In this document: positions 1-48,646 of the stretch, piece by piece
How positions within the stretch are numbered: position 1 is the stretch's first letter
Layout of the letters: the number at the start of each line of letters is the position of its first letter
Source of the DNA: Macrostomum hystrix
Lineage: Eukaryota > Animalia > Platyhelminthes
NCBI GenBank assembly: GCA_950097015.1
Contig: CATNEN010000038.1
Span: 31,000,001 to 31,064,000, forward strand
DNA length: 64,000 nucleotides
Direction of reading: 5' to 3'
Made by a program: the position numbers and the translations under genes
The notes under the pieces: model-generated
Database searches by the model: none
Told to the model about the DNA's origin: nothing
The model's input: only the letters and a program-made list of their open reading frames with translations

Positions 1-1580
1 ACCTAGTCCCTGAGCCTAAGGCTCCAGATCATAGCAGCAGGCAACTACCTGCTAGTGCCCTTAAGCGCAAGCCACCTCTTTAGGTGCGCTCCAAATTGAG
101 CCTTGAGCTCCCTGCAGTCTGGCCCCTTGCCAACTGTACTCAGCAATCCCCCACCTATTCCCCTGTTCATTTGCATTCCCAGCGAGACCAACGGCCTGCA
201 GCCTGTCAACCAGCATCGCAGATAAGTAACCCGCGTAGCGGACTTTTATTGCTATCCCTAAGGGATTTATTACTTAGCTAGTGGGCAATCGGGGCGAGGG
301 CAGGATTTGATTCTAGCCTAATAAACTATTATTCATCTTAGTCGCCAATCATTTAACTATTAGGCAATTTAGTAACAATTTAAATCACTTTCTATCATGC
401 TGTTATTTCCCCTTTATTTTATCATTAGACAGCCCTCAATCATGAGTGGCTAATTCACTAGGGGTGGGCTCTGGTGATGCCGAGCCGAAAGCTGCGGCAG
501 GAAGACAGCTGTGAGCGCGCATGAGAGCAATATGGAGCTAGGGATTTGCGAGCTAAATGCGGGATGTAGCGTGTGCATTTCTGCCTACGAGGTGGGGGAT
601 TCCTTGGCCGGCTTTCCTCACTCTCTCGGCGGGTTCCAGTGTATGCGTCAAGTTCCTTTGCCAATTTGAATTCTCCCTCTTTTCCCCGCCTTTCGCAACC
701 GCGGCCATGGGAGCGAGAGGCGTGATCTAATAATTTCCTGCTTGCATAATCACTCAGCCAGTGTTCAGCTTAATCTCTCCTGCCTCTGTTCTCCTCAACT
801 CACACAGAATCGGCTTGCTAGTTATCTAATGAGTAGGCTGCAGTCTAATGTACGGAATGTGTCTAATGTCTCATGAGTAGGATTCTGGCTATGGATTTCT
901 CATTCGGGTTCGGAGTACCACCTTCCTAGACCACTGTAGCGCAGTTTCAGGAATCCCCTTGTGAGGCGTGACTCGATCCATTCTGGGGTTCTCACCCTAG
1001 TCTAAAACGGAAGTTACAGAATGCTCTATTTTTCGGCTTGTCTAAGATCTGTGTGACAAACTGGGAGCTGCGAGCTCCGGGGACCCAAGTTCCCAAATGT
1101 CTGCGGTGGCAACGTAGGCGCATTGGGTGGTGGCGCTACCTTCGATCATTATCCGCTTGCCGATAGCCTTTCCGCATTTCTAAGACAAGAGCCTAGGCCG
1201 AGTCGACCACTGCTACCAAAGTTAGGAGTCAGTTACGAACATGCTACTGACGGCAGTAGGCTATCTAGCCCTGTCCTATTCGCTTGCGGGTAGTCCGACA
1301 TCTATTTAGACTTTTAGCCGGTTTCGAGCACTGCTTGGGGTGGGCACGGCAGTCATGCCTGTGGCCTATGGGTTGGGTGGGACTGGCCAGCCTGAGGCCA
1401 ATAGGACCACTCACTTGCATCCTTTGTACCGCTTCATCTCTCCCTTCATCCCTCCCTTCGTCATCCCTCTCTGCGACAGCTCGCGGCAGCAGCGATCGAC
1501 CTCCGACTCTATCGTCGTTTTCCACACTCCTATCTTTCATGAGGGCGGTCATCGGCTAGCAAAAGACCCGCACTATTTCA
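1..1580 (+). repeat. 5' LTR (partial, cut by window start)
   Basis: Matches 10712-12291; ends in CA immediately before the PBS. Confidence 0.95.
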
Positions 1581-1581
1581 A

Positions 1582-1602
1582 TGGTGGCATCGAGGTGGGA
1601 TT
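1582..1602 (+). promoter_or_regulatory. Primer-binding site, probably tRNA-Leu
   Basis: TGGTGGCATCGAGGTGGGATT starts 1 nt after the LTR end and resembles the complement of a tRNA-Leu 3' end (TGGTGGCAGCGGTGGGATT). tRNA identity is from memory and imperfect. Confidence 0.7.
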
Positions 1603-2905
1603 TAGAAAGGGCGCGAAACGAACCTGAATATTTTTCAATTGTTAGTTTAGCGCCGCAGATTTCTGTGGTAGTTAGCCGTAAGGGCTTCTTCTAGATTTCA
1701 TTTTCCGTATGCCTAAATCTTATCTCTAGAGACTGGACTTCAGTTCGAGTAACCGTCAAATTAATTTTCCGAACAGTTACAATTTGTTTTCAATTTAATT
1801 TAGGCTTTTGTTAGAGTTTCCAAAATTTCTGATTAGTGACTTTCTACTAAGAGTAGGCTGTGTGAGCGGACTTCATGCTAGAGTGTCTTCGGGTTATGTG
1901 GCTGCTGCAGGAGTCAGGGACTGTCTGTGGGGTTTCCCGCGTGACTGTTCTGGGAGGGGCCAATCTTAACGAAGGACCGGGCCATGCCGGTCAGGCCTCC
2001 TAACCGAGCGAAGTGAGCCCCCGGCAATGCAGCCGGGAACCGATGACTCGCTGAGCACCGGGGGTTGGTTCTCTTGGGCAGCTTGTAGGCCTGCTTACGT
2101 GTACCTGATTCTGAAAGTGTCACATAGCTTTGATCAAGTCTGACTTTGGTGGGGGACAGTTAGGGAGGTGGGACCTTCTGGGAGGTCTAGCGACCCCCGT
2201 GCCCGCCTCTCGAAGCTGCCTACTTTAAGTATGGGCTAGAATTCGGTCGGCGCGTCTTTCTAAGAAACTCTCTGAGGGATGGTCTAAACGGAGAAACCGG
2301 GCTCTAAGCCACGGGCCCCTAACCGAGCGAGGTCTCAGATGTATAATTCCTGGGATCCCCAGCCTCGTAATCGCGGAGGCGAAGCCCCCGGCCATCCCAA
2401 CCGGGAAGGGCCCTCTGAGCGAATCGGGGATTAGCCTTCTTTGAATGACTTTTTGAGTCGCGTGCTTTCCAAGGTAGGGAGATAGGCTGCTGCAGGCGCA
2501 AGCTTGCAGTAGTACTGGCCCCGCCGTACCTATAGTGTAACAGTCTGCTATAGGGTTGCTGAATGAGTGCTAGGTTAAAACCTAGACTTCTATGTCCCAA
2601 ACTTAAGTGCGCGCAAGCAGTTGTCGGTAGCCAAGGCTGGAAGCAAAGCTAGCCAGGGCCCTGGGCCCTTTTTCTCTCTCATTGACCTTTGATCTCATCT
2701 TTGCTGCAGGATTGTTTGCTAAGAGTAGGGAATTTGCTCGCGTCATCAATTAGGGCTGGATTTGACAACTCAGGCCCATTCTCTTTCCCTCTCGCACGAC
2801 CCCCGGTCGTGATCTGTGTTCCCCTTTCTCCCCTTCCCCATTGTTGCATTAGCGACAAACACCCCTTTTCAATTCGCAAAACCCTCATTTCTCTTTTGGC
2901 CGAAA

Positions 2906-5900
2906 ATGTCCGACCAGGAGGATGAGGTCGTCGAGGCAATCGGCGCCCCCCGTCCAATCAAAAATCGGGCTGTCTCCGCAGAGAGATGCCAGGAGAGGCG
3001 CCCCCTTCCTGCAACTGCAGCCTCGGATACCTCTAGAACGGATCCGTGGAAGGTCCATCGGCACCTTCTTGAGATGCTACAATCAATTAAGTCCGATTTG
3101 CAATCGCTTAACGGCCCAGTGCACTCCCCGGGGTCGTGGCACTCGGTTGCCACCCAGACGGAAGGTGAGCGTCCACAGGTTGTCAGGCCGGCGTACGGTT
3201 TCCGAATCCCGGTGGAGCCATTCGACCAAGGTCGCACCGACATTGCCTCCTGGATGCTTCGGCTGGAGGCAAAATTCCAATTTGAGGAGGTCGCCGATGA
3301 TAAGGCCAAGAACGTGACCTGTTACAGCCTGCTGCCGGAGGAGATGCAGCTAGAGTGTCTCCTGACGGTTGATTTTGATGGCCCCTTTGAGCACTTCCGA
3401 GCCAAAGTGTTAGACGGCTGCCTGGATTCCAGGTTGCCGTTAACTAAGAAGCGCACGGTCGAGCGCCTGCAGCCACGTTCAGGGGAGACTCCTGAGGTGT
3501 TCCTAGTGCGGCTGAGGAAGCTCGTGGAGTGGGCTTATGCCGAATACCCAGAGGACTGGCGACAGAACGAGCTCAAACGGCTCTATCTGCAGAACGGCCA
3601 CTTCGGCTACAACTTTGCCTTCGAGGCATTCCAGGCGAAGGACTGGACCCCGGAAGGCACGGTGTTTGAGCAGCGGAGGTCCGAGGAGGCTGACCGCGTC
3701 GCGCACGAACTCGAAAGCGAGCGACTAAGTTCAGCCTCTGAGGGTGCTTCGGTGTATCAGAGCTGTGCGTCCCCGGTGAGCAGCCCTCCTCGAGCCGCGG
3801 TCAGGGGGGTAGAGGCAGCTGACGAAGCTGGCCCCGCAGAACTCAGAAATGGAGTGGAGAAGGTGGGAGTCGGCTCCCAACTAACGGCTGAGCAGGAAAG
3901 GCAGCTGGGAGACTTGTTGCGGGCCAACGCCGACTTGTTCGCCGACCAGGAGGAGGACCTGACGGTCACGAGCGTGGTCCAGCATGAGGTCACGCTGACT
4001 GACCCCCGGCCCGTGAAGTCGGCGCCGCGGAGGATTCCCCAGGCCTACCTCGAGGAGGTGCAGCAGATGGCAAGGGAGTGGTTGGAGACCGGGAAGGTCA
4101 GCCGCTCGACCAGCTCTTACTGCTCGCCGCTGGTGCTGGTCAAGAAGAAGGACGGCTCTCTACGGGTCTGCATCGACTATAGGGAGCTCAACGAGCGGAG
4201 TGTGTCAGAGGTCACGCCGCTGCCACGCATCGACGAACTGTTGGCATCGTTGCATGGGTCCTCTTACTTCACCACCCTGGACCTCCGCAGCGGGTACCAC
4301 CAAGTGCCCATGCACGAAACTTGCAAATCATACACCGCATTCGCCGTCCCGGGAGTCGGGTTACTGCAGTGGAATGTGATGCCATTCGGGCTGAAGGGTG
4401 CACCAAGCACATTCTCCCGCTTGATGAACCTGGTGCTGGCAGGCGTGCCACAGCATGAGGCCATGGCGTACATCGACGACGTCATCGTGCACTCTGCTAC
4501 CTTCGAGGGACACCTAGTCCGGCTCCAGAAGACATTCGATCGTCTTCGGGCGGCTAATTTGAAGATGAAGCCATCAAAGTGCTTCCTCGCGCAGCCCGAG
4601 ATCTCTTTCCTCGGACATACGGTGTCGGGAACAGGCATCGCGACTGACCCTCATAAAACATGTGCGTTGACCACGTGGCCACGGCCGCGTACAGCCACTG
4701 ACGTCCGCTCATTCTTAGGCGCGGTGGGCTACTACCGTGATTTCGTGCCCGAGTACAGCCGCCTCTCGGCACCTCTTTGTGAACTCACCAAAAAGGGCCT
4801 CGTGGATATAGAACCCCTCTGGGACGACCGGCACGAGGCCGCGTTCGAGGAGCTGAAGGCGCGGATGGTCGAGGCGCCAGTGCTGGCCCACCCGAGTTTC
4901 GAAAAGGGCGCAGGGCGTTTCATCCTCGACTGTGACGCCAGTCTGGAGTCCTTGGGGGCGGTGTTGAGCCAAGAACAGCCGGACGGGACGGAGAGGGTCT
5001 TGGCCTATGGCAGTAAGGCCTTATCCGCATCTCAGCGGAACTACTGCGTCACTAAGTTAGAAATGCTGAGCCTCGTGTACTTCACTAGGAAGTACAGGTA
5101 CTACCTACTGGGCCGCCGGTTCTTGGTCCGAACCGACCACAGTTCCCTCCAGTGGCTGCGGAGCTTTAAGGAGCCAACTGGCATGTATGCTCGGTGGGTG
5201 CAGCACCTGTCGCTATACGACTTCGACCTGGAGTATAGGAAGGGCAGCCTCCATACCAACGCCGACGCATTGAGTCGCCGGCCTAGACAGAGACACGGAG
5301 ATTGCCCCGTCTGTCGGCCGCTGGAGCCCGGCAGCGAGGAAGAAAGTGAGGACGAAGGGATGGTGGTAAACGCCGTCGCGGCAGTCATGGAGCCGCCGCT
5401 GCAGCCCGAGGAGCTGCTGGCCCAGCAGGTCGCCGACCCGGTGATCCATTGGATACTGCAAGCGAAGGTCAACGGTCTGGCCGCCCCAGTTCCGGCCGCG
5501 GTCCCGGAGTTGACCGCCAAGCAGAAGGTTGCGTTGAAGAAGGTGGTGCCCTACTGGGACCTCTTGAGAGTGGAGGAGCAGTTGCTCAAAATTCAGGTGC
5601 ACGCTCCCCCCCGGCCGCCGCTGTGGGTGCTCCCAGCAAGCCTCGACGAACAGGCTTTTCACTCGTGCCATAACGGGAGTTTAGCCGGGCATTTCGGGCG
5701 TCAAAAGACTCTGGCGCGTGTCGCCCAGCGGTTTTGGCGACCAGGACTCCGCGCTTCGATGCAGAAGCTGTGCGCGCAGTGCCACGCCTGCCTGTGCAGC
5801 AAGAAGGGCCGCAGAGCTCAGGCTCCGCCGCAGCCATGGGAGAAAAGCCCGAAGTTCTCACGGATCCACCTAGACTTTGTCGGCCCCCTCGGTCGCGGCG

Positions 5901-7045
5901 GTCAGAGCATCCTCACGATCGTGGATAGCTACTCCGGCTGGGTCGAGGCGTTTCCTGTGGCCAGCCAAACCGCTAAGGCAGTCACGAGGATCCTGTCCAC
6001 AGAGTTCATCCCACGGTTCGGGGTGCCCGATTGGATCCACAGTGACCAGGGCGCTCAATTCGAATCGAGCCATTTCCGCGACTTTTGTCGGAAGCTGGGC
6101 ATTCGAAAGACCAGGACCACGCCCTACCACCCACAAGGCAACGGCATGGCGGAATCCCAGCACCGCACCCTGAAGGCGCTGTTGACAACGGCCGTGGGCC
6201 GACACCACGAGAAGTGGAAGGCTCACCTGGGCGCTTGCCTTGCCGCCATGAGGTCCGCCGAACACTCCTTGACCGGATTTTCACCTTTCTTCTTGGTGTA
6301 TGGGCAGGAAGCCCGGCTGCCCGTAGACGTGGCACTGGCCGCGCCGGCCGAAGCACCTGCGCCCCATCATTACGCGGAGCAGCTCTTGCAGAACCTGGAG
6401 GAGGCTCAAGTGCAGCTGCAGGAGCAATTTAACCAGAAGCTCCAGGCGCAGGCCCGAATGGGGGACAGGCAACGAAAGACGGAGCTCGAGGTAGGGGCCG
6501 TTGTGTACCTGGCCCGCCATCAGATCGAAGGCTGGGAGATTCCCAAATTTCACCAGGCCTACTCGGGACCGTGGAAGGTGGTCGCGAAGCCGGGCGTGTC
6601 GATTTACGACGTCGCGCCGGTGACCCCGCAGCCCGGCCGACAACAGACATACCGGGTGCACCGCGACAACTTGCGCGCTGTCCCCAAGGAGGCCGGGGAA
6701 GTCCGACCAACCCAGGAGGCGGGCGAGAGGCAACCAAGGCAGGTGCAGCGTGGGCCCGGGCGGCCACCCGTGCGGCCCAGGCCAGCCTCACCCCCGCCGA
6801 GGATGTTAAGGGCGGAAAGCGAGCCCGACGACCAGTGGAGCGACGGCTCCTCTGATTCCGGGGAGTACTGGATTGACCTCGAGGAGCCGCCGCCGCAAGG
6901 GATGGACGAAGGCCCGCGGGTGTTGAGGCCCCGGGAAGGCATCCGACCCCCCGAGCGCTGGGGCTATGCCCGGAGGATTCTCCTCGGCGAGCCCGAATCT
7001 GACCCGGAATCCTGGGCGAGGACCCACGGCCACGACCCAGGCTAG
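2906..7045 (+). CDS. Gag-Pol polyprotein (Gag capsid-like, RT, RNase H, integrase); no aspartic protease motif seen
   Basis: First ATG at 2906 (MSDQED). RT: SPLVLVKKKDGSLRVCIDYR, LDLRSGYHQ, MPFGL, YIDD. RH: DCDAS, TDHSSL, NADALSR. IN: HHCC, HLDFVGP, HSDQG, NGMAE, GPW. No stops or frameshifts. Confidence 0.96.
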   Translation: MSDQEDEVVEAIGAPRPIKNRAVSAERCQERRPLPATAASDTSRTDPWKVHRHLLEMLQSIKSDLQSLNGPVHSPGSWHSVATQTEGERPQVVRPAYGFRIPVEPFDQGRTDIASWMLRLEAKFQFEEVADDKAKNVTCYSLLPEEMQLECLLTVDFDGPFEHFRAKVLDGCLDSRLPLTKKRTVERLQPRSGETPEVFLVRLRKLVEWAYAEYPEDWRQNELKRLYLQNGHFGYNFAFEAFQAKDWTPEGTVFEQRRSEEADRVAHELESERLSSASEGASVYQSCASPVSSPPRAAVRGVEAADEAGPAELRNGVEKVGVGSQLTAEQERQLGDLLRANADLFADQEEDLTVTSVVQHEVTLTDPRPVKSAPRRIPQAYLEEVQQMAREWLETGKVSRSTSSYCSPLVLVKKKDGSLRVCIDYRELNERSVSEVTPLPRIDELLASLHGSSYFTTLDLRSGYHQVPMHETCKSYTAFAVPGVGLLQWNVMPFGLKGAPSTFSRLMNLVLAGVPQHEAMAYIDDVIVHSATFEGHLVRLQKTFDRLRAANLKMKPSKCFLAQPEISFLGHTVSGTGIATDPHKTCALTTWPRPRTATDVRSFLGAVGYYRDFVPEYSRLSAPLCELTKKGLVDIEPLWDDRHEAAFEELKARMVEAPVLAHPSFEKGAGRFILDCDASLESLGAVLSQEQPDGTERVLAYGSKALSASQRNYCVTKLEMLSLVYFTRKYRYYLLGRRFLVRTDHSSLQWLRSFKEPTGMYARWVQHLSLYDFDLEYRKGSLHTNADALSRRPRQRHGDCPVCRPLEPGSEEESEDEGMVVNAVAAVMEPPLQPEELLAQQVADPVIHWILQAKVNGLAAPVPAAVPELTAKQKVALKKVVPYWDLLRVEEQLLKIQVHAPPRPPLWVLPASLDEQAFHSCHNGSLAGHFGRQKTLARVAQRFWRPGLRASMQKLCAQCHACLCSKKGRRAQAPPQPWEKSPKFSRIHLDFVGPLGRGGQSILTIVDSYSGWVEAFPVASQTAKAVTRILSTEFIPRFGVPDWIHSDQGAQFESSHFRDFCRKLGIRKTRTTPYHPQGNGMAESQHRTLKALLTTAVGRHHEKWKAHLGACLAAMRSAEHSLTGFSPFFLVYGQEARLPVDVALAAPAEAPAPHHYAEQLLQNLEEAQVQLQEQFNQKLQAQARMGDRQRKTELEVGAVVYLARHQIEGWEIPKFHQAYSGPWKVVAKPGVSIYDVAPVTPQPGRQQTYRVHRDNLRAVPKEAGEVRPTQEAGERQPRQVQRGPGRPPVRPRPASPPPRMLRAESEPDDQWSDGSSDSGEYWIDLEEPPPQGMDEGPRVLRPREGIRPPERWGYARRILLGEPESDPESWARTHGHDPG

Positions 7046-7249
7046 GGAAAGGTAGCTCCCGCTGCGGGTGCCCCGAAGCACTCACTCGGCCGTGCTAGGC
7101 GACCGAGCCCCACTGGGGACCTCGTTGGGGGAGCGATCCCCCATTCTGTCACCCTTTTTGCTCCTTTTCTCCTATCGTGCACGCCTTCTCTTTTTCATCA
7201 AAGCCGCCTTGGCACAAAAATCTCACACAAAAATTCTTATAATTTTAGC

Positions 7250-7860
7250 CAAAACCGCAAAAATACACATAGTGGGGTGAAATTCCCCTGATACTTTTTA
7301 CATAAGATGCTTCTCTAATTGTAGCAAACTAGGGTATGCACCTTCTTTTCTTAAAGAGCATTTTACTTTAATCGCACCACATCATGCATGGCACCTCTGC
7401 CTTATCTTGTTCATATTGGTGGGTCCGTGGGAGTTCAATTTAGGACAACTTCTAAATTAGGAGGGACACCAACCCGCTAAAGTGAGCGGGGTGGTATGCC
7501 ATGGGAAATTCTATGTTTCTTTAAGGGAGGGAAGGCGGTTTCAAATCAAAAAGGCCATCTCGGCGCCAAAACCTCTTAAAAACTTATATAAACTAATCAA
7601 AATCCAAAAACATATTTAGTGGGGTGAAATTCCCCTTCGTAAAAATTTTCGCATGAAACATTTTCGTAATAACTGCCGCAAACTAGGGTTCGCACTTACT
7701 TTTCGCAAAACTTGCTTATCCTACATGTTCTCTATGCTTGGTTTCGGGAGTTTAGCTATGCCGGCTTCTATTTAGGGGGTATACCAACCCGCTAAAGTGA
7801 GCGGGGTGGTATGTTTCGGGAGTTTTTCTTAATGTTTGTTTAAAGAGTGGGCGGTTGTAA
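7250..7860 (+). repeat. Two diverged ~315-350-bp direct repeats with conserved hairpin blocks in the retrotransposon 3' region
   Basis: TAGTGGGGTGAAATTCCCCT at ~7270 and ~7617; AAACTAGGGT at ~7326 and ~7680; identical 31-mer ACCAACCCGCTAAAGTGAGCGGGGTGGTATG at 7468-7498 and 7783-7813. Confidence 0.85.
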
Positions 7861-8309
7861 ATCAAGAAGCCGGTAGGGTCAGGTATTCAAATTCTAGGGG
7901 AGACAATCTGGCTGTTTCAATGAGCGGCAGATTTCAAAATGATAATTTTTCTTTTGTTAGGGCTAGAAAAGACAAAAAGAAACATTATTTAGGAGCCAGA
8001 AGCTAGCAGCTAGGAGTTCAAATCTAGGTACCTAGGTAGTAATAAATCGTATGAATTAAGGTTCCAGACGTTTCAAAAACTCATTAACAGTCTATCAGTT
8101 TTTTTGTTACTAGGCAGTTGTAAAATTTGAGCAGTGGTATTTCATCTAAGAAAGGAAGTCGGACACAGATGGCGAATTCTCGTTTTACATTTCCAATGGT
8201 GGCGTTTGCTTTATTCGTATAGAAAGTTGGGTTTATTTGTACAGGGCACAATGGCAGACACGCATATGGTTAGGTTCAGATTAACGAGTCAGCAAGTGAC
8301 CTTGGGTTG

Positions 8310-8947
8310 TCACAGCAGGAAAACCAGTACCAGCAGTAAGATGGCCGCGAACGCCACTCCGGCAGCCAGGGCCGTGCCCAGCGGGCCCCGAATGAAACTA
8401 GAAACGATGGCCGCCAGGTCGGCCTCCCGGCCTTCGGGCACGTTTATGTCTGCAAAAACAAGGTGGAGGAGTAGTTTAGTGAGGCGCAGTGGCGTTCTGC
8501 AGGCGGAAGTTTCAAATGGTGACACCCAGAGTGTGGGGGGGAAGTGTAGGTTTATCAATGCCAACTTACTCATCACAAACGACACCGATATGGGGCCACC
8601 CGACGCGGTCCGGCGTCGAGGCTCCGGTTCGAAGGCACCGAGCGGGTAGCTGCTGAAAGCGAAGAGTGGTGTAGTCCGATTAGGAATGGAAGAATAGAGG
8701 TGGCAATCGCAGACTAAGTAACTTTCAATTTAATCAATCATTAACTCAGGAAGGGTTCCTTTTTCGCAGTTTTGGGGTCGGGGTCAATTTCAGATTCTCG
8801 GGATAAATGGCGTGCCGTGGGTAGGGGGAACTCTAGTTATCCTAATTATTATGACATAACCCGCGCAATTATCCTTAATAACCGGCCTTGGGGGGCCGAG
8901 TAGAAGCAAATAACTCACCTTTCGTCTTCAGGTTGCTGCTGGGCCAT
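8310..8947 (-). CDS. Predicted antisense three-exon accessory gene inside the retrotransposon; 83-aa protein with C-terminal TM helix (exons 8947-8919, 8652-8570, 8449-8310)
   Basis: Minus strand: ATAATGG start; donors AG|GTGAGT (8918) and A|GTAAGT (8569); acceptors CTCTTCGCTTTCAG (8653) and TTGTTTTTGCAG (8450); phases join in frame; AATAAA at 8232-8237 and 8210-8215. Confidence 0.72.
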
Positions 8948-9127
8948 TATGTAGTCAAGACGTACGCGATAGTTGGTATCGATGCTGGTCACAGTGTAGA
9001 CTTAGATGGCAAATGTGTAGTTTTTCCTTCTTGCCGTTAATCACAAGGATGTTAGGTTCAGTATGGCGGAATTAGCAGTTGTTTAGGAGATAAAGAGGCT
9101 TTGGGTTAATGGGGCGTCAAGTGTTTG

Positions 9128-9177
9128 CTTTTATAGGGCTAATTTAGGGAGACGTGGCGGTCTAACCGCCAGCCAAT
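9128..9177 (-). promoter_or_regulatory. Putative antisense core promoter: TATAAAAG (9135-9128) plus CCAAT (9173-9177)
   Basis: Canonical TATA ~180 nt upstream of ATG 8947, with no other ATG in between on the minus strand. Confidence 0.6.
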
Positions 9178-10060
9178 GGGAGCAAAGTGGGAATTCCGGG
9201 CAGAACCAGTTTAGGGGGCTCATGGTAACAGTTTAGTTGTTGGGGCCCTGACCTTTTCGGTGAGGAGACACCTCGGCCGGCAACAGCATCACAAGCGGCC
9301 TGAGCAGCGGTTTCCCCAGCTGCGACCAGCTGCAGCGCCGATTGGGCCGCGCGCAACGGCTAGGCAACCGGCCCGACGAGAATTTTCGGGCCCGGCCAGC
9401 TGAAAACACCTGGGCGCGCGGCGAATCAGAGGCTACCACGGCCCGGCAACGGAATCGGGAAGGCGCGAACGGACCAACCAACCCGGAGCCACCTGGGGAA
9501 GAGCACGGCCGGACCCTCGGACTTAAGGAGAAAACGGCCGGAGCCTCCCGGGATTGCGCAACCGAGACCAAGCCGGGCAGGGAAAGACGGGGACAGCTGC
9601 AGCCACCTGGAGGAGAAGGCGAATCGGGACACGGCACCCCGGGACAGCGAGAACAACTCTAACTCAGCCGGAATGCGCACCCACCTCCCCTCAGGACTCT
9701 ATCCCTTAGTTGCTAGGGGCGCCGACCTTTACACTCTCGCACACAATCTATTTATAGCAGTATTGTTACGTACGATGACCTAGGATTTCTTCTCTAGCGG
9801 ATTTCTTCTTAAGGTTCTTTACGGTATACAGTAGGGTAATGTAAGTTTTTGCCCCCTCGATTCGCGGCACACCCCACTACTGACAGTAAGCACGTAAGTG
9901 CCTTACGTGAAAGTGAGCAAGGGCGGTGTGATGTGGAGTGTACTTCGGAATCGAGTGGGGTTGTGAGCCAGCCAAATTTTTCCATTTTTAGCAAGTTAAT
10001 AATCGCGACCCACATAGCAGCTGGCCGCAGAACACCATCATTAATCTTAGGGCCAGACTT

Positions 10061-10070
10061 GGGGCGGAGG
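10061..10070 (+). promoter_or_regulatory. Polypurine tract
   Basis: GGGGCGGAGG immediately before TGAA, which is the inverted partner of the LTR end TTCA. Confidence 0.7.
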
Positions 10071-12291
10071 TGAATTAAGTAGCCGCCGATTCCCTTTGTC
10101 TCGGATCTGTCTAGTCCCCTGTAGGAGTGACTGATCGCGGAAATAGCAATACTGTATGGACTAGTTTAGGTTATAATTCCCCTCCAAACCGCGATCAGAT
10201 TGTCGGGATCACTCATGCGTTTAGAGTGAGCTTTAATTCTTCATGTCCCTCTTCTTTACTGTAACCCGAGCCGAAGCTCGATTATGACCTTTCCCCCTTT
10301 AGATACATGTAACGACACTATAGGCAGGTCGGCGCCTGCGCTTCCCATATCCCGGCGGGATCACAATCATTGGCCGACTGCCGGCAGACGCTCCTAGTGG
10401 GGCATCTGGCGATTCTCGCCGCCGCTTCAGTGGGCAATTGGGGTGGCATTATGCCGACCCGATTCCTCGCTGACAGGCCGGCGAGCATGTGGGTTATTTT
10501 GATGAATGCGGGGTTGGCGGAGCTGCAGGACTATTTAAGAGAGCGCGCTGCGCTGCCCCTAGAACAACCTTTTCCTTTTTCCGGGAGCCTTTCCCGGCGA
10601 CCTACCTTTAACCTTGCCCAGGACCTTCCCTCCACCCTGGACTAAAACCTACCCCCCCTTCCTGTCTGGTCCCGGAACTCGGTCCGTGGACTCTCCCCCT
10701 TCTAGGCTAGCACCTAGTCCCTGAGCCTAAGGCTCCAGATCATAGCAGCAGGCAACTACCTGCTAGTGCCCTTAAGCGCAAGCCACCTCTTTAGGTGCGC
10801 TCCAAATTGAGCCTTGAGCTCCCTGCAGTCTGGCCCCTTGCCAACTGTACTCAGCAATCCCCCACCTATTCCCCTGTTCATTTGCATTCCCAGCGAGACC
10901 AACGGCCTGCAGCCTGTCAACCAGCATCGCAGATAAGTAACCCGCGTAGCGGACTTTTATTGCTATCCCTAAGGGATTTATTACTTAGCTAGTGGGCAAT
11001 CGGGGCGAGGGCAGGATTTGATTCTAGCCTAATAAACTATTATTCATCTTAGTCGCCAATCATTTAACTATTAGGCAATTTAGTAACAATTTAAATCACT
11101 TTCTATCATGCTGTTATTTCCCCTTTATTTTATCATTAGACAGCCCTCAATCATGAGTGGCTAATTCACTAGGGGTGGGCTCTGGTGATGCCGAGCCGAA
11201 AGCTGCGGCAGGAAGACAGCTGTGAGCGCGCATGAGAGCAATATGGAGCTAGGGATTTGCGAGCTAAATGCGGGATGTAGCGTGTGCATTTCTGCCTACG
11301 AGGTGGGGGATTCCTTGGCCGGCTTTCCTCACTCTCTCGGCGGGTTCCAGTGTATGCGTCAAGTTCCTTTGCCAATTTGAATTCTCCCTCTTTTCCCCGC
11401 CTTTCGCAACCGCGGCCATGGGAGCGAGAGGCGTGATCTAATAATTTCCTGCTTGCATAATCACTCAGCCAGTGTTCAGCTTAATCTCTCCTGCCTCTGT
11501 TCTCCTCAACTCACACAGAATCGGCTTGCTAGTTATCTAATGAGTAGGCTGCAGTCTAATGTACGGAATGTGTCTAATGTCTCATGAGTAGGATTCTGGC
11601 TATGGATTTCTCATTCGGGTTCGGAGTACCACCTTCCTAGACCACTGTAGCGCAGTTTCAGGAATCCCCTTGTGAGGCGTGACTCGATCCATTCTGGGGT
11701 TCTCACCCTAGTCTAAAACGGAAGTTACAGAATGCTCTATTTTTCGGCTTGTCTAAGATCTGTGTGACAAACTGGGAGCTGCGAGCTCCGGGGACCCAAG
11801 TTCCCAAATGTCTGCGGTGGCAACGTAGGCGCATTGGGTGGTGGCGCTACCTTCGATCATTATCCGCTTGCCGATAGCCTTTCCGCATTTCTAAGACAAG
11901 AGCCTAGGCCGAGTCGACCACTGCTACCAAAGTTAGGAGTCAGTTACGAACATGCTACTGACGGCAGTAGGCTATCTAGCCCTGTCCTATTCGCTTGCGG
12001 GTAGTCCGACATCTATTTAGACTTTTAGCCGGTTTCGAGCACTGCTTGGGGTGGGCACGGCAGTCATGCCTGTGGCCTATGGGTTGGGTGGGACTGGCCA
12101 GCCTGAGGCCAATAGGACCACTCACTTGCATCCTTTGTACCGCTTCATCTCTCCCTTCATCCCTCCCTTCGTCATCCCTCTCTGCGACAGCTCGCGGCAG
12201 CAGCGATCGACCTCCGACTCTATCGTCGTTTTCCACACTCCTATCTTTCATGAGGGCGGTCATCGGCTAGCAAAAGACCCGCACTATTTCA
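10071..12291 (+). repeat. 3' LTR (~2221 bp, TGAA...TTCA)
   Basis: 3' part matches the 5' LTR. Start inferred from the PPT and terminal TG...CA. TATA-like TATTTAAG near 10532. Confidence 0.85.
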
Positions 12292-13309
12292 GTAGGTATT
12301 TTTCAAGAGTTTTATTAAGACAGTGATGTCGACCGTTTTCCACGTCTTGCTTAAGAAGGCGCTACCGGCACCGGGCCTCATGACTCCGTAACTACTTCAC
12401 CTCGTATGATGATATTGCTAGCTTTTGATGTGACTTATAGTGGCCAAGATCCCTGGGACAAAGGGGAAAAGACCTGGGTTGTTAGAGGGTATAACCAGCT
12501 GCTAGGCAGGGACAACCGATTGACCCTGACAAAACGGGGCTTCCGCTTTAATAGAGATAGTTCTTTGGGCTCATCGCCACGGTCCATGGCTGGAAACAGG
12601 GATTCTATGCGAGGTATTCTCAGGGAGTAGACGGTTCAGCAAGAGAGAGGACTTTTGCATAGGGGAAGACAGATCGAGGGCCCAAACCAAGGTCGAGAGT
12701 GTCCAGAGCATTTACTCCTGGTCACAAGGCCCCAACGATGCAAGTACAGGTTAAGGATCGGCTTCCATGTAGTCTCGTGCACAATGCCTAACTTAACTAA
12801 ACCTAAGAGTACATCAGAATAAAATTCAATTGAGGCTTCGCATGCACATTAGTCTCCTCACTGTCGATTGAATTCGGCTCTGTGCTGTGGAGTCATCCAT
12901 TCTAAGTAATCATGGCCTCATTCTTTGGCCCTGCAAGCTTACTCGCTCTTCGCCATTCAAAATTAACGAAGTAAAGCAATTAAAAAAGATTTAGTTCTTT
13001 GGTTTTTAGATTATTCCCCTATTAGATTTCAAAGCTCACCTATAGTAATTACGTTCTAATTAACCTTGAACGAATAATTAGTACACATAGGATTTGGGTT
13101 TCGTAAAAAAACTCGTAAAAAGCCGTAAAAAGCGTAAAATAAGGACTCAGATCTAGAGAGTATGAGAAGCTAACCGTTAACTGGCCCAATTAAAGGCTAA
13201 CCCTGCATAGAGCGTAGGACAATGCCAAGTAAGAGGGACTCACCGATCTGGCGACGCGACTGGTTGATTGGTGCGATGGACGAGCGGTGTGGCGACTGTG
13301 CCTAGGAAA

Positions 13310-30849: not shown

Positions 30850-31165
30850 TAATAAAAATTACATGAGGGCTGCGGGCAGTGGCACATCATTTGGTGACAC
30901 TAGACTGGCAGCCAGTAAGGAGGCAATTCTGCCCATTTCGCTGACTCCTGAGCACACACTCGCACAGGTGTGTATTTCTGCCCTGCCTGTCTACTCGTCA
31001 GGCAGTGTACACTCTCACTGTGCCTTGGAGGTTGGCCCTCAATGGCGTAAATTGTACGACAAGCCCCCAAGCCTTCTCTCCAAATCAGTGTGGCCTCGCC
31101 GCGGAATCGAGCTCAGGGATCTTGGCGCGAGAAGCGAACGCGTTAGCCACTCTGCCACTCACCCC
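30850..31165 (-). mobile_element. tRNA-derived SINE, family 2
   Basis: Minus head GGGGTGAGTGGCAGAGTGGCTAACGCG...CTCGATTCC; body shared with copies at ~33575-33935 (+) and ~35855-36061 (-). Confidence 0.75.
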
Positions 31166-31472: not shown

Positions 31473-32599
31473 ATGCAGAGAACCTACTCAAACTGCTCAG
31501 CGATGCAAATGATGGGAGAAATCCCATTGCCGACTGAGAAGAGTCAGCTCAACACCGAGACGCCAATCGAGGCGAAAGCCGATCCGTTGTCGGACGAGGC
31601 GAGTTCTTTGGCGGAGGCTCGCGTTAAGCGCCCGATGAACGCCTTCATGGTTTGGTCGCGCAGTCAGCGGCGCCTTCTGGCCAGAGCCAATCCGCGGCTG
31701 CACAACTCGGAGATCAGCAAACGCCTCGGCGTGCAGTGGCGACGCATGACCGACGATGAGAAGCGACCGTTTGTTGACGAGGCCAGGCGGCTGCGCGCCG
31801 ATCACATGCGGGCGCATCCGGGATACAAGTACAGGCCTAGGCGACGTCCGCGATGTTCGCCGGGTTCGGGTTCGGGGTCGGCAGACGCCGCCGCGATGGG
31901 GCCGGAGAAGGGGGGATATTTTTCGCCGGCTCTCTTTTTCCCGCCGCCAGGTGAGACCGAGAATTGGTGTCAGACACAGACACTAGAATTCTGAAATATC
32001 ACAAGCTGCACTTTATTATACAACTTCAATGCCAAGGGCATGCAAAATTAACGAAATTAAATAATTGATTTAAAATGCAATGCAGAGTTATGTGCCAATT
32101 GCTGAAGAATTACTAGTGCTCGTTGGGCACAAATTGTTCTGGAATCGAACCCCCGACCTTTAAGTCACGAGTTCGAAGCTCTAACCACTAGGATAAAACA
32201 GCTTTCATGTTGTGCTTTTATTACTGAAACTTAGGCCTGCAGCTGCCACTGATGTCGCAGTTCTTCGGTCTGCCACCACAGCCGGACTATCGCCTGCTCC
32301 GCGAAGGAGCCCCACAAACCAGCGCAGCCTTCTACCATTCACCACCGCTGCCGCCTCCATCTGTCACCATGGCAGCCGCGTCTAGTGCTCAATCGGATTT
32401 CAGCAGCGCCAGCAGTCTCTACAATCGCTACATCGCTGCAGCCGCAGCCGCCGCCGCCATGTCGGCCGCACTAGGCGCGCCACAGCTGCCGCCTCCACCG
32501 CCGCCGCCGCCACCACCACCACCGCCGCCACCGCCAATGCTGCCCCAGTTTTGTAGTCTGATATCGTCGATTGGACTTGGAACTAATCGTATTATGTGA
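31473..32599 (+). CDS. SoxB-group HMG-box transcription factor; exons 31473-31950 and 32235-32599; ~280 aa
   Basis: [14 protein letters not shown]...[10 protein letters not shown]...[11 protein letters not shown]|GTGAGA donor and TTAG acceptor in phase 1. Poly-Ala/poly-Pro C-terminus. Confidence 0.9.
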
Positions 32600-33574: not shown

Positions 33575-33935
33575 GTAGTGATTGGCAGAGCTCTGGTCAA
33601 TTGGTCCATATGAGCTCGTCTCCGCGGTGGGGCCACATTCATTTGGGGCGCAGCAGCGGGGAGAAGGTGGGGTCTTGTCGTACAATTTACACCCTTAAGG
33701 GCCAATCTCCAAGGCACAGTGAGAGTGTACACTGCCTAACGATGAGAAAGTCTGGGCAGATGTACACCTGAGTGAGCATGTGCCTGCGTTTGGTGCCTGT
33801 ATTTGTGTGTGCTCAGGAGTCAGCGAAATGGGCAGAATTGCCTCCTCTCGCTGGCTGCGGATCTAGTGTCACCAAATGTCAAATGATGTGGTTTTGTCCG
33901 CAGCCCCCTGGCAATTATTATTTTTTCATTTTTTT
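33575..33935 (+). mobile_element. SINE family 2 copy (degenerate head)
   Basis: Shares GTCGTACAATTTAC, GTGAGAGTGTACACTGCC and GCTCAGGAGTCAGCGAAATGGGCAGAATTGCCTCC with the reverse complement of 30850-31165. Confidence 0.7.
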
Positions 33936-36448: not shown

Positions 36449-37888
36449 ATGTCCGTCAGTCTGTTCAACAGCACTCCATTTCATCTGGAGATCGAAGTCT
36501 GCGAGCGAGGCGGAGGTGTGAAGGCCAGGTTTCATTTGAACCCCGTCAAAGACCGCTCCTTGTTGATTCAGAACGAGACCATGCAGCTGGAGCGTCCATT
36601 GCTACGAATCAAAGCAAACGACTCGCTTGGGAAAACACTGAAATCAGTGGAATTCTACACCCAATGCAACCACTCGTGGATCATTTCTGACAGTGAAGTC
36701 AGGCGCCAATTGAGTGACTCGCAGTTGCACGTTTCCGATTGCTATTCCGAGAAAGAGAAGGAGAGCTACTACTGCTGGGATCCAGACTACAAGTGGAAGT
36801 ACTGCAGAGAGATAAAACAGTACAGTTGGGATGCTGTCGGAGGAATTCCTTGCCTCTGCATCGGTGCTGTTGATACCTGCCATCCGGCCTTCAAGATGGT
36901 CGTCAAGACGGAAGCACTCGCAACTCATCGCTCTGGTGACAGTGCAGCAAACAAGAAAACAATCAACATATTCAACGACTCGCCATACTATCTGGACATC
37001 AGCATGGAGGACAGATCAAGTCATCGGCTGTACTGGAATGATCCAGAGAGTAATCGGGTGACTCCGCTCCAGACCAATGACGCTTATCCCCTCATAAAAA
37101 TCACCGCATGCGACTCCATCGGTCAGCAGGTGAAGAGCGCCTCATTCTACACTAGGAACGACTTCTCCTGGGTGGTGACAGACGAGTGCATTGTGCGGCA
37201 GAAGCCAGGAGCTGCTCCGTACGCTGCACTGCCATATGAGGCTAGTCAGATCATCTCCGAATGCAGTAGGGATAGGTGCGACGAAGCGATGCGGTACAAC
37301 TGGTTGATCGACACCGACAAGGACTTGACGCTGCGTAGAATGGACGAGCCAGGCGATAGCAGCTTGACGATGGGCAGTGCTGAAGAGCAGCGTGTGACAG
37401 AAGATCACGAGCCGGGTGGTGTTTTCTTCGACATGGCCCATCCCAGTGGATTCAGCAGCATGACAGCCAAAGAGAGCAAAGCTGCTCATGAGTTAGTGGA
37501 ATGGATAACATTCGATCGACTGTGCCGAGGAAAGGCTGGAACCCTGTATGAGGAAAGCAATTTTCGGTTGGACTTGCAGAGAATCCAAAGCGAGCCTCGA
37601 CCATATACGGTGTTTGCTATTCAGTCGGGAAACAGACATTTCGCTACCGTCTACATTCACAATGACTTAATCAATGGCGGAAAAATAGCAAACGGTGTTT
37701 TGCGCAAAGCCTTCACAATGTCACTACTTGATGGTAAGGAGATCTGGATATCCGTCGATTCAGCGGGTGACAAGCCGCCAACTGGACCTCCCGTTGGCGA
37801 TGCAAAAATGCAGTTCAAGCTAGTGCTTAGTATCAAGGACGTCGGTAATAATCGCGTGCGCATATGGCGTCGAGATGATCGAAAGTAG
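36449..37888 (+). CDS. Uncharacterised 479-aa single-exon ORF with an N-terminal tandem domain duplication
   Basis: Long non-repetitive ORF in AT-rich flanks; acceptor-like TTTAATTTGCAG directly before the ATG; no family recognised. Confidence 0.8.
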   Translation: MSVSLFNSTPFHLEIEVCERGGGVKARFHLNPVKDRSLLIQNETMQLERPLLRIKANDSLGKTLKSVEFYTQCNHSWIISDSEVRRQLSDSQLHVSDCYSEKEKESYYCWDPDYKWKYCREIKQYSWDAVGGIPCLCIGAVDTCHPAFKMVVKTEALATHRSGDSAANKKTINIFNDSPYYLDISMEDRSSHRLYWNDPESNRVTPLQTNDAYPLIKITACDSIGQQVKSASFYTRNDFSWVVTDECIVRQKPGAAPYAALPYEASQIISECSRDRCDEAMRYNWLIDTDKDLTLRRMDEPGDSSLTMGSAEEQRVTEDHEPGGVFFDMAHPSGFSSMTAKESKAAHELVEWITFDRLCRGKAGTLYEESNFRLDLQRIQSEPRPYTVFAIQSGNRHFATVYIHNDLINGGKIANGVLRKAFTMSLLDGKEIWISVDSAGDKPPTGPPVGDAKMQFKLVLSIKDVGNNRVRIWRRDDRK

Positions 37889-39766: not shown

Positions 39767-41887
39767 CTAATCGCGGCTAGTCTCGCCCTTGGCGGCTTGG
39801 CCGGACCTCAGTCTAGCTCGATAGTTGATCCACAGACGGTGCAGCAGCTCTTTGAGCACTGGTTCGCCAGCGTTTTTACCAATCATACGCAAAATGAAAG
39901 CTCCGTCGGAGTCCACGTGATCGTTGAAGAATCGGTCGCGATCGGCCCTAGTAGAGCTGTCGATCGATGATAGATCGGCGTCGTCAAAAGAAGCGGATGC
40001 GGCGGCGGCGGCGGAAGTTCTGGACAGTTTCGCGATTTCAACAGATTCCAGCAGGCGTTTCAGGGTGGCGAATCGCCTGTTGGGCAGGAAGGCCCAGGCC
40101 AGCCAGAAGAGTGCGTCCAGGATAGTTACCACGGACACGAACAGCAGCATGAACCAGAGAAAGATAAATATCTGCGTGAGTGAGAGTAGGCAAGGAGAGA
40201 GTAGAGTGGGGAGATAGAGAAGTGTAGAGAGGAGAGTGAGAGGTGGAGACAGGAAAATGAGAAGTGGAGACGGAGATTGAGAAGTGGAGATGGGAATGTG
40301 AGAAGTGGAGATGGGAGTATGAGAAGTGGAGACAGGAGAGTGAGAAAGGGAGACAGTGGTGTGAGAAGTGGAGACGGAGAGTGAGAAGTGGTACAGGAGA
40401 GTGAGGTGAGTGAGAAGTGGAATGAAGAATTAGAGTAAGGAAAAAATAAAAGAAAGAGAAGTTCTTTTAAGAGAATAGGGTAAAACTATTAAAGATCATG
40501 CGCAAATGTTTTAACCAATTAACCTTTTCATTGAGTAGGTTGACGACCAGAACGCACTGCAGAGTCCTCGGGTGGCTGTTGCCAATGACGCGCACATTAA
40601 AGTCGCACAGAGTCACCCTGGGGAAGTGCCCCGAGTGGCGCCAGTCGCGATTGTGCCAGAGATCGTGCAGCACCCCCAGACCATAGAAGTTGTAATCTGT
40701 GCCGAGGAAGGCGTTTAGCAGAAAGAATTGGCCGACAACGTTGGCGATGTACAGCAGCTTGATGGTCAGGTAGACATTGATGAGGTACCTGCCGTAGGCT
40801 GCCTTGCCAATCAGCAGGTACCGAATTAGCACCTGCTTCAGGTTGTGGTAAAACCCGGAGTCCTTGCCGCTCTTCTTCACGATGGAAGTTTGGAAGTGCC
40901 AGGCCAAGCTCTTCACCTTCTCGTCGCGCTTGTCTGGATTGTCGTCGATGCAGTTGACGGCCATGCCGACCAGTGTCTTGATCTGGACGCCTGTGGCGAG
41001 GCGTTGGACTAGCACTGACACAATGGATTCACAAACACTGACACAATGAATTCACAAACACTGACACAATGGACACACAAACGCTGACACAATGGACACA
41101 CAAACGCTGACACAATGGACACACAAACGCTGACACAATGGACACACAAACGCTGACACAATGGACACACAAACACTGACACAATGGACACACAAACGCT
41201 GACACAATGGACACACAAACGCTGACACAATGGACACACAAACACTGACACAATAGACACACAAACACTGACACAATAGACACACAAACACTGACACAAT
41301 GGACACACAAACGCTGACACAATAGACACACAAACACTGACACAATAGACACACAAACACTGACACAATGGACGCACATTGTGTCAAACAATGGGGCAGC
41401 ACATCAGATTCTCGCACTAAAGTCCCCCAGTTCGCAGCCACGCAGAGAACACTTAGTTTGCGCATTTGAAGGTGAATAAATTACCAGACTGCCAATTAAG
41501 CAGCTTCCAGATGACGCTAGGCAGGTAAAACAACAGCGCCTGAACGGCCAGCATGAACGGCACCCACTGATAGTACTTGAGCTCCTCGCTTTTCCTATCA
41601 ACCTGGTCTCCGGGAATGCTGCCATTGGGCGGTACAAAGTAGGTGTTCTTCAGCCAGCAGTAAGTTTCGGCGTACTGCTCCCAGGCCGGCTTGAACTCTG
41701 GCGGAATCCAGCACTGAACCGGGTCGCCGATGAGGTACATCTTGGTCATGACAATGGACGACATGATCACAATTAGCACAGGAGCATAGTAAGAGTTGAT
41801 TCTGTCAATGGCGTCGTCATCGGAGATGCGGTGCTTCCGACTGGTGAATTTGAAGCCGCTGACCGCCTTAAAGAATCCTGTGTCCAT
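39767..41887 (-). CDS. Innexin (gap-junction protein); exons 41887-41485, 40990-40524, 40171-39767; 424 aa
   Basis: DDDAIDRIN, GDPVQCW, YCW, YYQWVP, FPRVTLCDF, QCVLVVNLLNEK|IFIFLWF; GT-AG introns in consistent phase. Confidence 0.95.
41015..41375. repeat. 23-bp minisatellite in innexin intron 1
   Basis: Tandem GACACAATGGACACACAAAC(A/G)CT. Confidence 0.92.
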
Positions 41888-44811: not shown

Positions 44812-44929
44812 GGCAACTGAAAGGTTAGGTAAGACACCAGGTGAAACAATTAGCAGTGAAATAGGTGAAATAGTGAGGCAGTGAGACACCATTATTTCAC
44901 TGGTGCATCCCTGTATGAGGTAACAGTGA

Positions 44930-47080
44930 TACAGTAGGACTGTACAGGTGAGACAGTAGGACAGCACAGGTGATACAGAATGAAAAGCACAGGTGAGACA
45001 GTAGGACAGCACAGGTGAGACAGTAGGACAGCACAGGTGAGACAGTAGGACAGCACAGGTGAGACAGAAAGACAGCACAGGTGAGACAGTAGGACAGCAC
45101 AGGTGAGACAGAAAGACAGCACAGGTGAGACAGAAAGACAGCACAGGTGAGACAGAAAGACAGCACAGGTGAGACAGTAGGACAGCACAGGTGAAACAGT
45201 AGGACAGCACAGGTGAGACAGTAGGACAGCACAGGTGAAACAGTAGGACAGCACAGGTGAAACAGTAGGACAGCACAGGTGAGACAGAAAGACAGCACAG
45301 GTGAGACAGTAGGACAGCACAGGTGAAACAGTAGGACAGCACAGGTGAGACAGAAAGACAGCACAGGTGAGACAGTAGGACAGCACAGGTGAAACAGTAG
45401 GACAGCACAGGTGAGACAGTAGGACAGCACAGGTGAGACAGAAAGACAGCACAGGTGAGACAGTAGGACAGCACAGGTGAGACAGAAAGACAGCACAGGT
45501 GAGACAGAAAGACAGCACAGGTGAGACAGTAGGACAGCACAGGTGAAACAGTAGGACAGCACAGGTGAGACAGTAGGACAGCACAGGTGAAACAGTAGGA
45601 CAGCACAGGTGAAACAGTAGGACAGCACAGGTGAGACAGAAAGACAGCACAGGTGAGACAGTAGGACAGCACAGGTGAAACAGTAGGACAGCACAGGTGA
45701 GACAGAAAGACAGCACAGGTGAGACAGTAGGACAGCACAGGTGAAACAGTAGGACAGCACAGGTGAGACAGTAGGACAGCACAGGTGAGACAGAAAGACA
45801 GCACAGGTGAGACAGTAGGACAGCACAGGTGAGACAGAAAGACAGCACAGGTGAGACAGAAAGACAGCACAGGTGAGACAGTAGGACAGCACAGGTGAAA
45901 CAGTAGCACAGCACAGGTGAGACAGTAGGACAGCACAGGTGAAACAGTAGGACAGCACAGGTGAGACAGTAGGACAGCACAGGTGAGACAGAAAGACAGC
46001 ACAGGTGAGACAGTAGGACAGCACAGGTGAGACAGAAAGACAGCACAGGTGAGACAGAAAGACAGCACAGGTGAGACAGTAGGACAGCACAGGTGAAACA
46101 GTAGCACAGCACAGGTGAGACAGTAGGAGAGCACAGGTGAGACAGAAAGACAGCACAGGTGAGACAGTAGGACAGCACAGGTGAAACAGTAGGACAGCAC
46201 AGGTGAGACAGAAAGACAGCACAGGTGAGACAGTAGGACAGCACAGGTGAAACAGTAGGACAGCACAGGTGAGACAGTAGGACAGCACAGGTGAGACAGA
46301 AAGACAGCACAGGTGAGACAGTAGGACAGCACAGGTGAGACAGAAAGACAGCACAGGTGAGACAGAAAGACAGCACAGGTGAGACAGTAGGACAGCACAG
46401 GTGAAACAGTAGGACAGCACAGGTGAGACAGTAGGACAGCACAGGTGAGACAGTAGGACAGCACAGGTGAAACAGTAGGACAGCACAGGTGAGACAGAAA
46501 GACAGCACAGGTGAGACAGTAGGACAGCACAGGTGAAACAGTAGCACAGCACAGGTGAGACAGTAGGAGAGCACAGGTGAAACAGTAGGACAGCACAGGT
46601 GAGACAGTAGGACAGCACAGGTGAGACAGAAAGACAGCACAGGTGAGACAGTAGGACAGCACAGGTGAGACAGAAAGACAGCACAGGTGAGACAGAAAGA
46701 CAGCACAGGTGAGACAGTAGGACAGCACAGGTGAAACAGTAGGACAGCACAGGTGAGACAGAAAGACAGCACAGGTGAGACAGTAGGACAGCACAGGTGA
46801 AACAGTAGGACAGCACAGGTGAGACAGTAGGACAGCACAGGTGAAACAGTAGGACAGCACAGGTGAGACAGTAGGACAGCACAGGTGAAACAGTAGGACA
46901 GCACAGGTGAGACAGTAGGACAGCACAGGTGAGACAGAAAGACAGCACAGGTGAGACAGTAGGACAGCACAGGTGAGACAGAAAGACAGCACAGGTGAGA
47001 CAGAAGGACAGCACAGGTGAGACAGTAGGACAGCACTTGTGACACAGTAGGACAGCAGTGGAAAAGCACAGGTGAGACAA
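44930..47080. repeat. 22-bp minisatellite upstream of the DTYMK acceptor
   Basis: Tandem ACAGCACAGGTGA(G/A)ACAG(TAG/AAA)G. Confidence 0.95.
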
Positions 47081-47499
47081 CCAGCATAATAGTAAATAAA
47101 GTAAAAACAACAAAATGAGAAATTTCCGATTCCATAGCAAATATATTTCTCAGTCGCATTCAGAGCTAAATCAGCTTAGTAAGACAAAACTTGGTTGCTG
47201 AAAATGCCAAAAGTGGTTTGTTGCAAAGTCAAGCAGCTGGATGAAACAAATTGCGCCTCTGTTAAAGTTTGGAAATCTCAAAAGATGTTAACAACTAATT
47301 TAAAAAAGCATTATGATTGAACAATTCCTGAAAAAACCTGAACCAACAACTTATAAAGGATTTCATATTAAATAACACGAATCATAAGAGTCAAATAGTT
47401 TTTATTTCATTTTTATATTCATAGATGAGATGAAAAAAATCTAAACAGGGACTGGAGACTATCGGGATTATGTCTATTCGGAATTGAGAATATTTAAAA

Positions 47500-48505: not shown

Positions 48506-48646
48506 TGTCGTCTATATTTGTATGAAGAATGCGACAAACATACATTGGTCAGATTCAGAAGATTTATAGTTTCAGGCAATTTTCGGTAAAAATCAATCCT
48601 AATAATAAGTAAAGAGAGTTCTCAAGACAGCTTCAACAACTAGAGT

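Follow-up and report, generated by a model that had tools for sequence, protein, structure and literature searches.

A probable spliced antisense gene for a small, predicted tail-anchored membrane protein in a Gypsy retrotransposon of Macrostomum hystrix

Results

A recently inserted Gypsy element without a detectable protease

The window, that is, the whole stretch of 64,000 nt from Macrostomum hystrix analyzed here, begins within a Gypsy LTR retrotransposon whose sense genes lie on the plus strand. The 5' LTR (1-1580, plus strand) is cut by the window start and matches 10712-12291 at 100% identity in blastn, with the first mismatch at 1581; since the LTRs are identical over 1580 nt, established reasoning makes the insertion a very recent one. 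With part of the 5' LTR lying outside the window, neither a clear PPT nor the 5' end of the 3' LTR can be fixed: 10712-12291 (plus strand) is the fixable part of the 3' LTR, its true start lies further upstream, and 10071 is an unproven candidate for that start. The LTR is unusually long (at least 1580 nt, and ~2.2 kb with a start at 10071), and the 10071-12291 LTR region contains a TATA-like motif at 10532 and an AATAAA at 11031.

By sequence inspection, a PBS-like site starting with TGG (1582-1600, plus strand) lies 1 nt after the LTR end. A single ORF of 1379 aa (2906-7045, plus strand) encodes a probable Gag region followed by reverse transcriptase (RT), RNase H and integrase, with the Pfam domains RVT_1, RT_RNaseH, Integrase_H2C2 and rve. 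The two LTRs, the PBS-like site and the RT-RNase H-integrase order place the element among the Gypsy retrotransposons. Among the 120 matches listed from the protein collection, relatives of the pol region share 33-50% identity, and the collection thus contains no close family member. Related loci with the integrase region were sought in metagenome contigs (48 pattern matches, none confirmed) and those with the RT in viral contigs (3 pattern matches, none confirmed). None of the sense ORFs tested downstream of pol has a family match. A diverged, non-coding two-unit duplication follows pol at 7250-7869 (self matches 7250-7350/7598-7704 and 7449-7553/7765-7869, 71-76%). The 1.3 kb before the gag-pol ATG (1581-2905) holds 13 upstream ATGs, and a site resembling a donor at 1678 and one resembling an acceptor near 2710 could delimit a sense-strand leader intron in the same region.

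The aspartic protease that precedes RT in autonomous Gypsy elements was not found in the 2906-7045 ORF. Of 105 homologs with the RT anchor, 62 have a protease motif 236-408 aa ahead of it, and an HMM built from these 62 homolog segments matched 102 of 121 proteins at E<1e-3; the same HMM gave a best E of 5.5 on the six frames of 1-12300, where a strict motif was not found either. The stretch at the usual protease position is weakly Gag-like. A search for a Gag capsid returned a weak match to DUF7041 (E 0.008, below the cut-off), no CCHC knuckle was found in the polyprotein 2906-7045, and the Gag region gave no homologs among 3436 candidates, a blank PDB search and a single-sequence fold model with a pLDDT of 41. 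This copy is either mobilized in trans or a member of a protease-less lineage; a literature search listed no paper on such a case. The absence of a protease despite identical LTRs raises the question of how this family matures its polyprotein.

The remainder of the window contains a non-LTR retrotransposon that is broken and retains an RT fragment (PF00078; 13240-16900), an HMG-box (Sox-like) ORF (31473-31994) between inverted repeats at 30918-31069 and 33668-33846, a 479-aa ORF without Pfam match (36449-37888), an innexin fragment (40467-40964) and long satellites with periods of 22 nt and 29-30 nt (44850-64000). The HMG-box ORF and the innexin fragment identify the host as an invertebrate animal.

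Anatomy of the antisense gene

A first-pass annotation had described an 83-codon gene on the minus strand downstream of pol, with a TATA box, an ATG-free leader, two introns and two AATAAA signals, and we could rebuild this model from its coordinates base for base. Reading along the minus strand, the TATA box TATAAAAG (9135-9128) is followed by 180 nt that contain no ATG (8948-9127) and hold the predicted 5' leader; 4.1% of 5000 shuffles of this stretch were equally free of ATG. The coding part of exon 1 (8919-8947, 29 nt) opens with the start ATG at 8947. The predicted intron 1 (8653-8918, 266 nt) is of the GT-AG type (GTGAGT...TTTCAG) and has a branch-point-like CTAAT at 8683; if it is left in place the frame stops after 10 aa, which makes its splicing a requirement. 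Its acceptor is a CAGCAG tandem; exon 2 (8570-8652, GC 0.66) can therefore be 83 nt or, with the downstream CAG, 80 nt long, and an 82-aa form is equally possible. Intron 2 (8450-8569, 120 nt, GTAAGT...TTTTTGCAG) is also of the GT-AG type, and as its length is a multiple of three and it is stop-free in frame, its retention would give a protein of 122-123 aa. Exon 3 (8310-8449, 140 nt coding, GC 0.64) ends with TGA at 8310 and encodes the predicted transmembrane tail at about 8384-8313; two AATAAA signals (8237-8232 and 8215-8210) mark the end of the predicted 3' UTR. The spliced CDS is 252 nt long and encodes 83 aa plus the TGA.

The CDS (8947-8310) lies between the end of pol at 7045 and 10712 and overlaps no sense gene. 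The position between pol and the PPT that had been assigned to it is likely. The CCAAT at 9173-9177 had been listed among the signals in the correct order; this needs a small correction, since the motif reads on the plus strand and is reversed relative to the antisense gene. The GC content is 0.55-0.66 in the exons, 0.45-0.51 in the introns and 0.40-0.43 in the flanks. The plus-strand ORF 8251-8649 is read as a shadow of the antisense exons.

Shuffles and codon usage argue against a chance arrangement

A rule-based scan that requires a TATA box, its first ATG, consensus introns, at least 60 codons and an AATAAA found the antisense gene as the only model on both strands of 1-44800. Not one of 1000 dinucleotide shuffles of 7046-10070 gave such a model, even when one intron sufficed and no transmembrane segment was demanded; the scan criteria were fixed after the gene had been seen, which somewhat overstates this significance. 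We also scored synonymous codons with a measure trained on the pol of the element. The CDS scores 0.143 per codon, compared with 0.168 for pol windows, and exceeds every one of 3223 overlapping non-coding windows in the element (mean -0.169, maximum 0.09); when its nucleotides were shuffled 2000 times, 17 shuffles reached its score. The introns of the antisense gene score negatively. The GC content by codon position is 0.70/0.48/0.73 in the CDS and 0.65/0.46/0.75 in pol. The +1 frame scores 11.86 against 11.87 for the annotated frame, so the codon test points to a coding-like composition and not to a particular frame.

One assembled contig contains the predicted intron 2 junction

The public data consist of four runs from one study (X1-X4; library type not on record), which contain 60-66% of the words sampled from the sequence. 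Contigs were compared over 7900-9900 at 85% likeness and show neither strand nor expression level. One X1 contig joins 8449 directly to 8570 and thereby omits exactly the 120 nt of the predicted intron 2, with CT..AC ends and no microhomology. Among the 10 joints listed in 7900-9900, this is the only one with canonical ends, and it coincides with the intron predicted beforehand, where 1413 minus-strand GT..AG pairs would have been possible. The joint comes from a single contig in one of four runs (depth 8.66), its shorter side measures 30 letters against the 31 asked for bridging, and its record carries the entry "between: not known". Such an exact loss implies that spliced minus-strand RNA existed at some point, whether the run represents RNA or DNA. 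As to the two splice junctions proposed as a check of the model, 8570/8449 thus occurs in one contig, and no joint skipping intron 1 (8919/8652) is among those listed for the four runs. The depth is zero over 8972-9038 in all four runs, and since the filter may drop records we do not use this as evidence.

Taken together, the anatomy, the intron 2 joint, the codon usage and the shuffles make a separately promoted, spliced, antisense coding gene in an env-less Gypsy element likely, as the first-pass annotation had proposed, and we consider it very probable that the gene is real. The reading that no gene exists, and that chance signals, a hydrophobic tail and a contig joint artefact together mimic one, draws on the single contig, the post-hoc criteria of the scan and the absence of a homolog. 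It is the least probable of the explanations considered here, because the joint matches to the base a prediction made without these data, is the sole canonical joint, and is accompanied by the codon usage and the shuffle scan.

The gene varies among copies of the element

Several features speak for selection on the coding exons. An X3 contig diverged by ~10% covers 8312-8498 and differs at 19 positions without a gap. Its alignment is then lost over the 3' UTR (joint 8185-8312, three of four runs), and for other diverged contigs the match ends with the first base of the start codon (joints 8947-9087 in two runs and 8947-9079 in one). The 12 indels listed all lie outside the exons (29 further indels and 101 substitutions are recorded besides), and intron 1 contains all 13 distinct places given for 8698-8870. 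Other features speak against it. Joints fall on CDS ends in only three of the nine listed besides that of intron 2: joint 8207-8349 (two of four runs) breaks inside exon 3, joint 8943-9101 (one of four) inside exon 1, and joints 8907-9096 and 8910-9154 have a breakpoint within intron 1 and pass over exon 1 at 85% likeness. A contig over 8475-8664 has one gap at an unseen position.

Another variant, covered more deeply, joins 8100 to 8826 (depth 78 in X3 and 141 in X4, values that do not translate into copy number). Going by the lengths of the records, ~184 nt stand in place of the 725 nt of 8101-8825, which is too short for exons 2 and 3; the deeper-covered variant therefore likely lacks the gene body, and it appears to lack exons 2 and 3 together with the poly(A) signals. 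As to the proposed conservation among copies, the picture is mixed: exon 3 is gap-free in the ~10% diverged contig, and the deeper-covered variant appears to lack it.

A GC-rich block with E-boxes lies upstream

A GC-rich block upstream of the gene contains a cluster of seven E-box motifs (CAGCTG/CACCTG; 9317-9609), which we regard as a predicted enhancer; shuffles contain 0.28 such motifs on average and none of 5000 reached seven. Long contigs cover 9167-9579 without a difference in X2, X3 and X4 (depths 72-189), and 9120-9529 is covered in two pieces in X1. In deep contigs, the GC-rich block (9250-9760) shows no differences over about 410 nt even where the flanks differ by 10-15%. A second minus-strand TATA-like motif occurs at 9750-9756, and the stop-to-stop ORFs of the block (9233-9783) have no Pfam match and are read as shadows of the promoter block. 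This block seems to be common to variants with and without the gene, and the predicted enhancer may drive either the antisense gene or the LTR promoter.

The predicted product is a small tail-anchored protein

The hydrophobic C-terminal helix that had been attributed to the product is evident in its sequence. The Kyte-Doolittle mean over 19 residues is negative in the first 18 windows and rises to a single terminal peak of 3.05 (residues 65-83); K, R, D and E are all missing from the last 25 residues. By this hydropathy scan, the protein has the single C-terminal hydrophobic helix and the lack of a signal peptide that characterize tail-anchored proteins. A long, very hydrophobic last helix without trailing charge directs such proteins to the ER and the secretory path rather than to mitochondria. 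The N-terminal half is polar and net acidic (seven D/E and four R in residues 1-47), the cytosolic part would hold an acidic patch with Ser/Tyr near the start and a run of Arg, and residues ~50-63 are moderately amphipathic. Five small-xxx-small motifs occur in the last 30 residues; such motifs are common in Ala/Gly-rich helices. A sequence scan of the small protein found no Cys, no Lys and no myristoylation, late-domain or YxxL-type motif.

Homolog searches, for which the queries were the unspliced window frame or exon 3, yielded none among 201 candidates (76-244 aa), and Pfam and Atlas were blank. The only match in 1.84 billion representatives, P0121, is a 2435-aa repeat protein with no scoring stretches; its alignments reach 24 bits and lie partly on intron-derived residues, and we rejected it as spurious.

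Discussion

LTR retrotransposons of plants and Botrytis are already known to carry an additional gene downstream of pol, ahead of the 3' LTR and on the antisense strand. Such additional ORFs (aORF-3R) occur in Grande of maize (gene23), RIRE2 of rice, Retand of Silene, PvRetro13 of bean and Boty of Botrytis (brtn) (PMC7264820, PMC11963269, PMC8365987). The gene described here shares with them the antisense strand, the position (8947-8310 within 7045-10712), an own internal promoter (predicted here, and present in gene23) and the lack of a database homolog. The retention of the gene among copies is mixed: gap-free in the ~10% diverged contig and apparently absent from the deeper-covered variant. 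The aORF-3R products, as far as these sources describe them, are nuclear or carry TRP28- or SMC-like domains, whereas the gene here encodes 83 aa with a terminal membrane helix, contains two introns and resides in an animal. What is new is the animal host, the tiny payload with its predicted tail anchor, the upstream E-box cluster and the Gypsy polyprotein without a detectable protease, flanked by identical LTRs. In our literature search (full-text, judged mostly from listings, with subscription papers outside it), no animal Gypsy element appeared with a tail-anchored protein encoded by a spliced antisense gene, and the main text of PMC12801592 mentions neither antisense nor protease, transmembrane, splicing or ORF.

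Several membrane proteins of other elements and viruses invite comparison. Antisense protein (ASP) of HIV-1 is likewise an antisense-encoded membrane protein of an LTR retroelement, as is predicted here, but it has about 190 aa with two predicted TM segments, and its gene shares sequence with env and is expressed from the 3' LTR (PMC10186651), whereas the gene here overlaps no sense gene and its 83-aa product has one helix. Rotifer retroelements carry ORF3s with TM segments, on the sense strand as far as described (PMC5408684). The product also differs from Env in its small size (83 aa), its minus-strand origin and its lack of an ectodomain. Us9 of alphaherpesviruses is a small tail-anchored sorting protein with an acidic phosphorylated cluster that is essential for spread (PMC2361720). 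The product predicted here resembles Us9 in its small size, its tail anchor and a cytosolic acidic cluster that bears Ser/Tyr; Us9 belongs to an enveloped DNA virus, a sequence relation was neither found nor expected, and the acidic patch here is short.

The best overall explanation, to which we assign a probability of roughly 40%, is that the element carries a spliced antisense gene for an 82-83-residue tail-anchored membrane adaptor that serves particle transport. Its parts differ in strength. The gene would very probably be transcribed from its internal antisense promoter, spliced and translated, and its introns would survive copying because the genomic RNA reads them backwards. Going by targeting rules, the tail would probably be inserted into the ER after translation and move along the secretory path with its N-terminus cytosolic. 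By a weak analogy with Us9, the cytosolic acidic patch, the Arg run and the amphipathic helix might bind Gag or host sorting factors; the link between particles or Gag and membranes is a guess drawn from that analogy. The E-box cluster would restrict expression to certain cell types, and copies without the gene would rely on supply in trans or have no need of the protein. A bolder version, in which a protease-less animal Gypsy lineage docks its particles on membranes through an E-box-driven spliced antisense tail-anchored protein and passes them to neighbouring (germ) cells, is unlikely as matters stand; if true, it would represent a third cell-to-cell route of retrotransposons, independent of Env and sORF2.

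The same gene and the same tail-anchored protein could instead act on the host, by binding receptors, channels or restriction factors or by forming a small channel. Vpu and papillomavirus E5 are small hydrophobic viral accessory proteins that act on host membranes in this manner. The five small-xxx-small motifs, typical of helix-helix packing, would suit such a role, an own promoter with an E-box cluster would allow expression uncoupled from gag-pol, and the persistence of a variant without exons 2 and 3 fits a dispensable host-conditioning factor, but no homolog or motif links the protein to families of the Vpu/E5 type, and we hold this reading to be possible but doubtful. Fusion of cells, by contrast, seems very unlikely, and the earlier suggestion of a gene in the env position with a part in cell fusion loses ground. 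A fusogen of the FAST/MDG1 sORF2 type replacing Env would agree with the length (83 aa, within the 63-107 aa range of sORF2-like proteins), the single TM segment and the env-less element, and Drosophila MDG1-group elements indeed combine an env-less Gypsy with a small single-TM accessory protein. Yet sORF2, according to Voichek et al. (bioRxiv 10.1101/2025.03.14.642691), is encoded on the sense strand by unspliced RNA and has an ectodomain, a central TM segment, a polybasic tail and, in most cases, a myristoylation motif, none of which is present here, and the 105 sORF2/FAST-like candidates of that work are all in forward orientation. The product here has no MGxxxS/T motif, its TM segment is terminal with no residues beyond the helix and no polybasic tail, and the gene lies on the minus strand, which leaves the fusogen idea weak.

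Two further readings give the protein no use to the element, and both seem improbable to about the same degree, less so than fusion. The transcript might act as an antisense RNA that pairs with the 3' genomic RNA and tunes silencing or packaging, with an incidental peptide. PMC7264820 describes non-coding antisense transcripts of the retrotransposons micropia and TART as well as a dsRNA route, and the ORF is short; against this stand the exons with their pol-like codon bias and GC pattern, which the introns lack, the gap-free exon 3 at 10% divergence next to an unalignable UTR, and the end of the RNA, which would lie more than 1.1 kb from pol. Alternatively, the element may have captured a host gene of small size, or part of another mobile element, in reverse orientation with promoter and introns, and carry it as a useless passenger. 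The complete, host-like gene anatomy, the retention of introns that antisense capture allows and the variant without most of the gene would agree with this, but no cellular homolog appeared among the proteins searched, the gene is present in ~10% diverged copies with the exon 3 frame kept, and the upstream block is identical in the deeper-covered variants.

The role of the antisense extra genes of LTR retrotransposons is described as an open question in PMC7264820. Those known so far suggest nuclear roles; an animal element with a tiny membrane-anchored product would point instead to particle trafficking or to the manipulation of host membranes. Screens based on ORFs, like that which uncovered sORF2, would overlook a gene as short as this one that is also spliced and antisense, and genes of this kind may be common yet unannotated.
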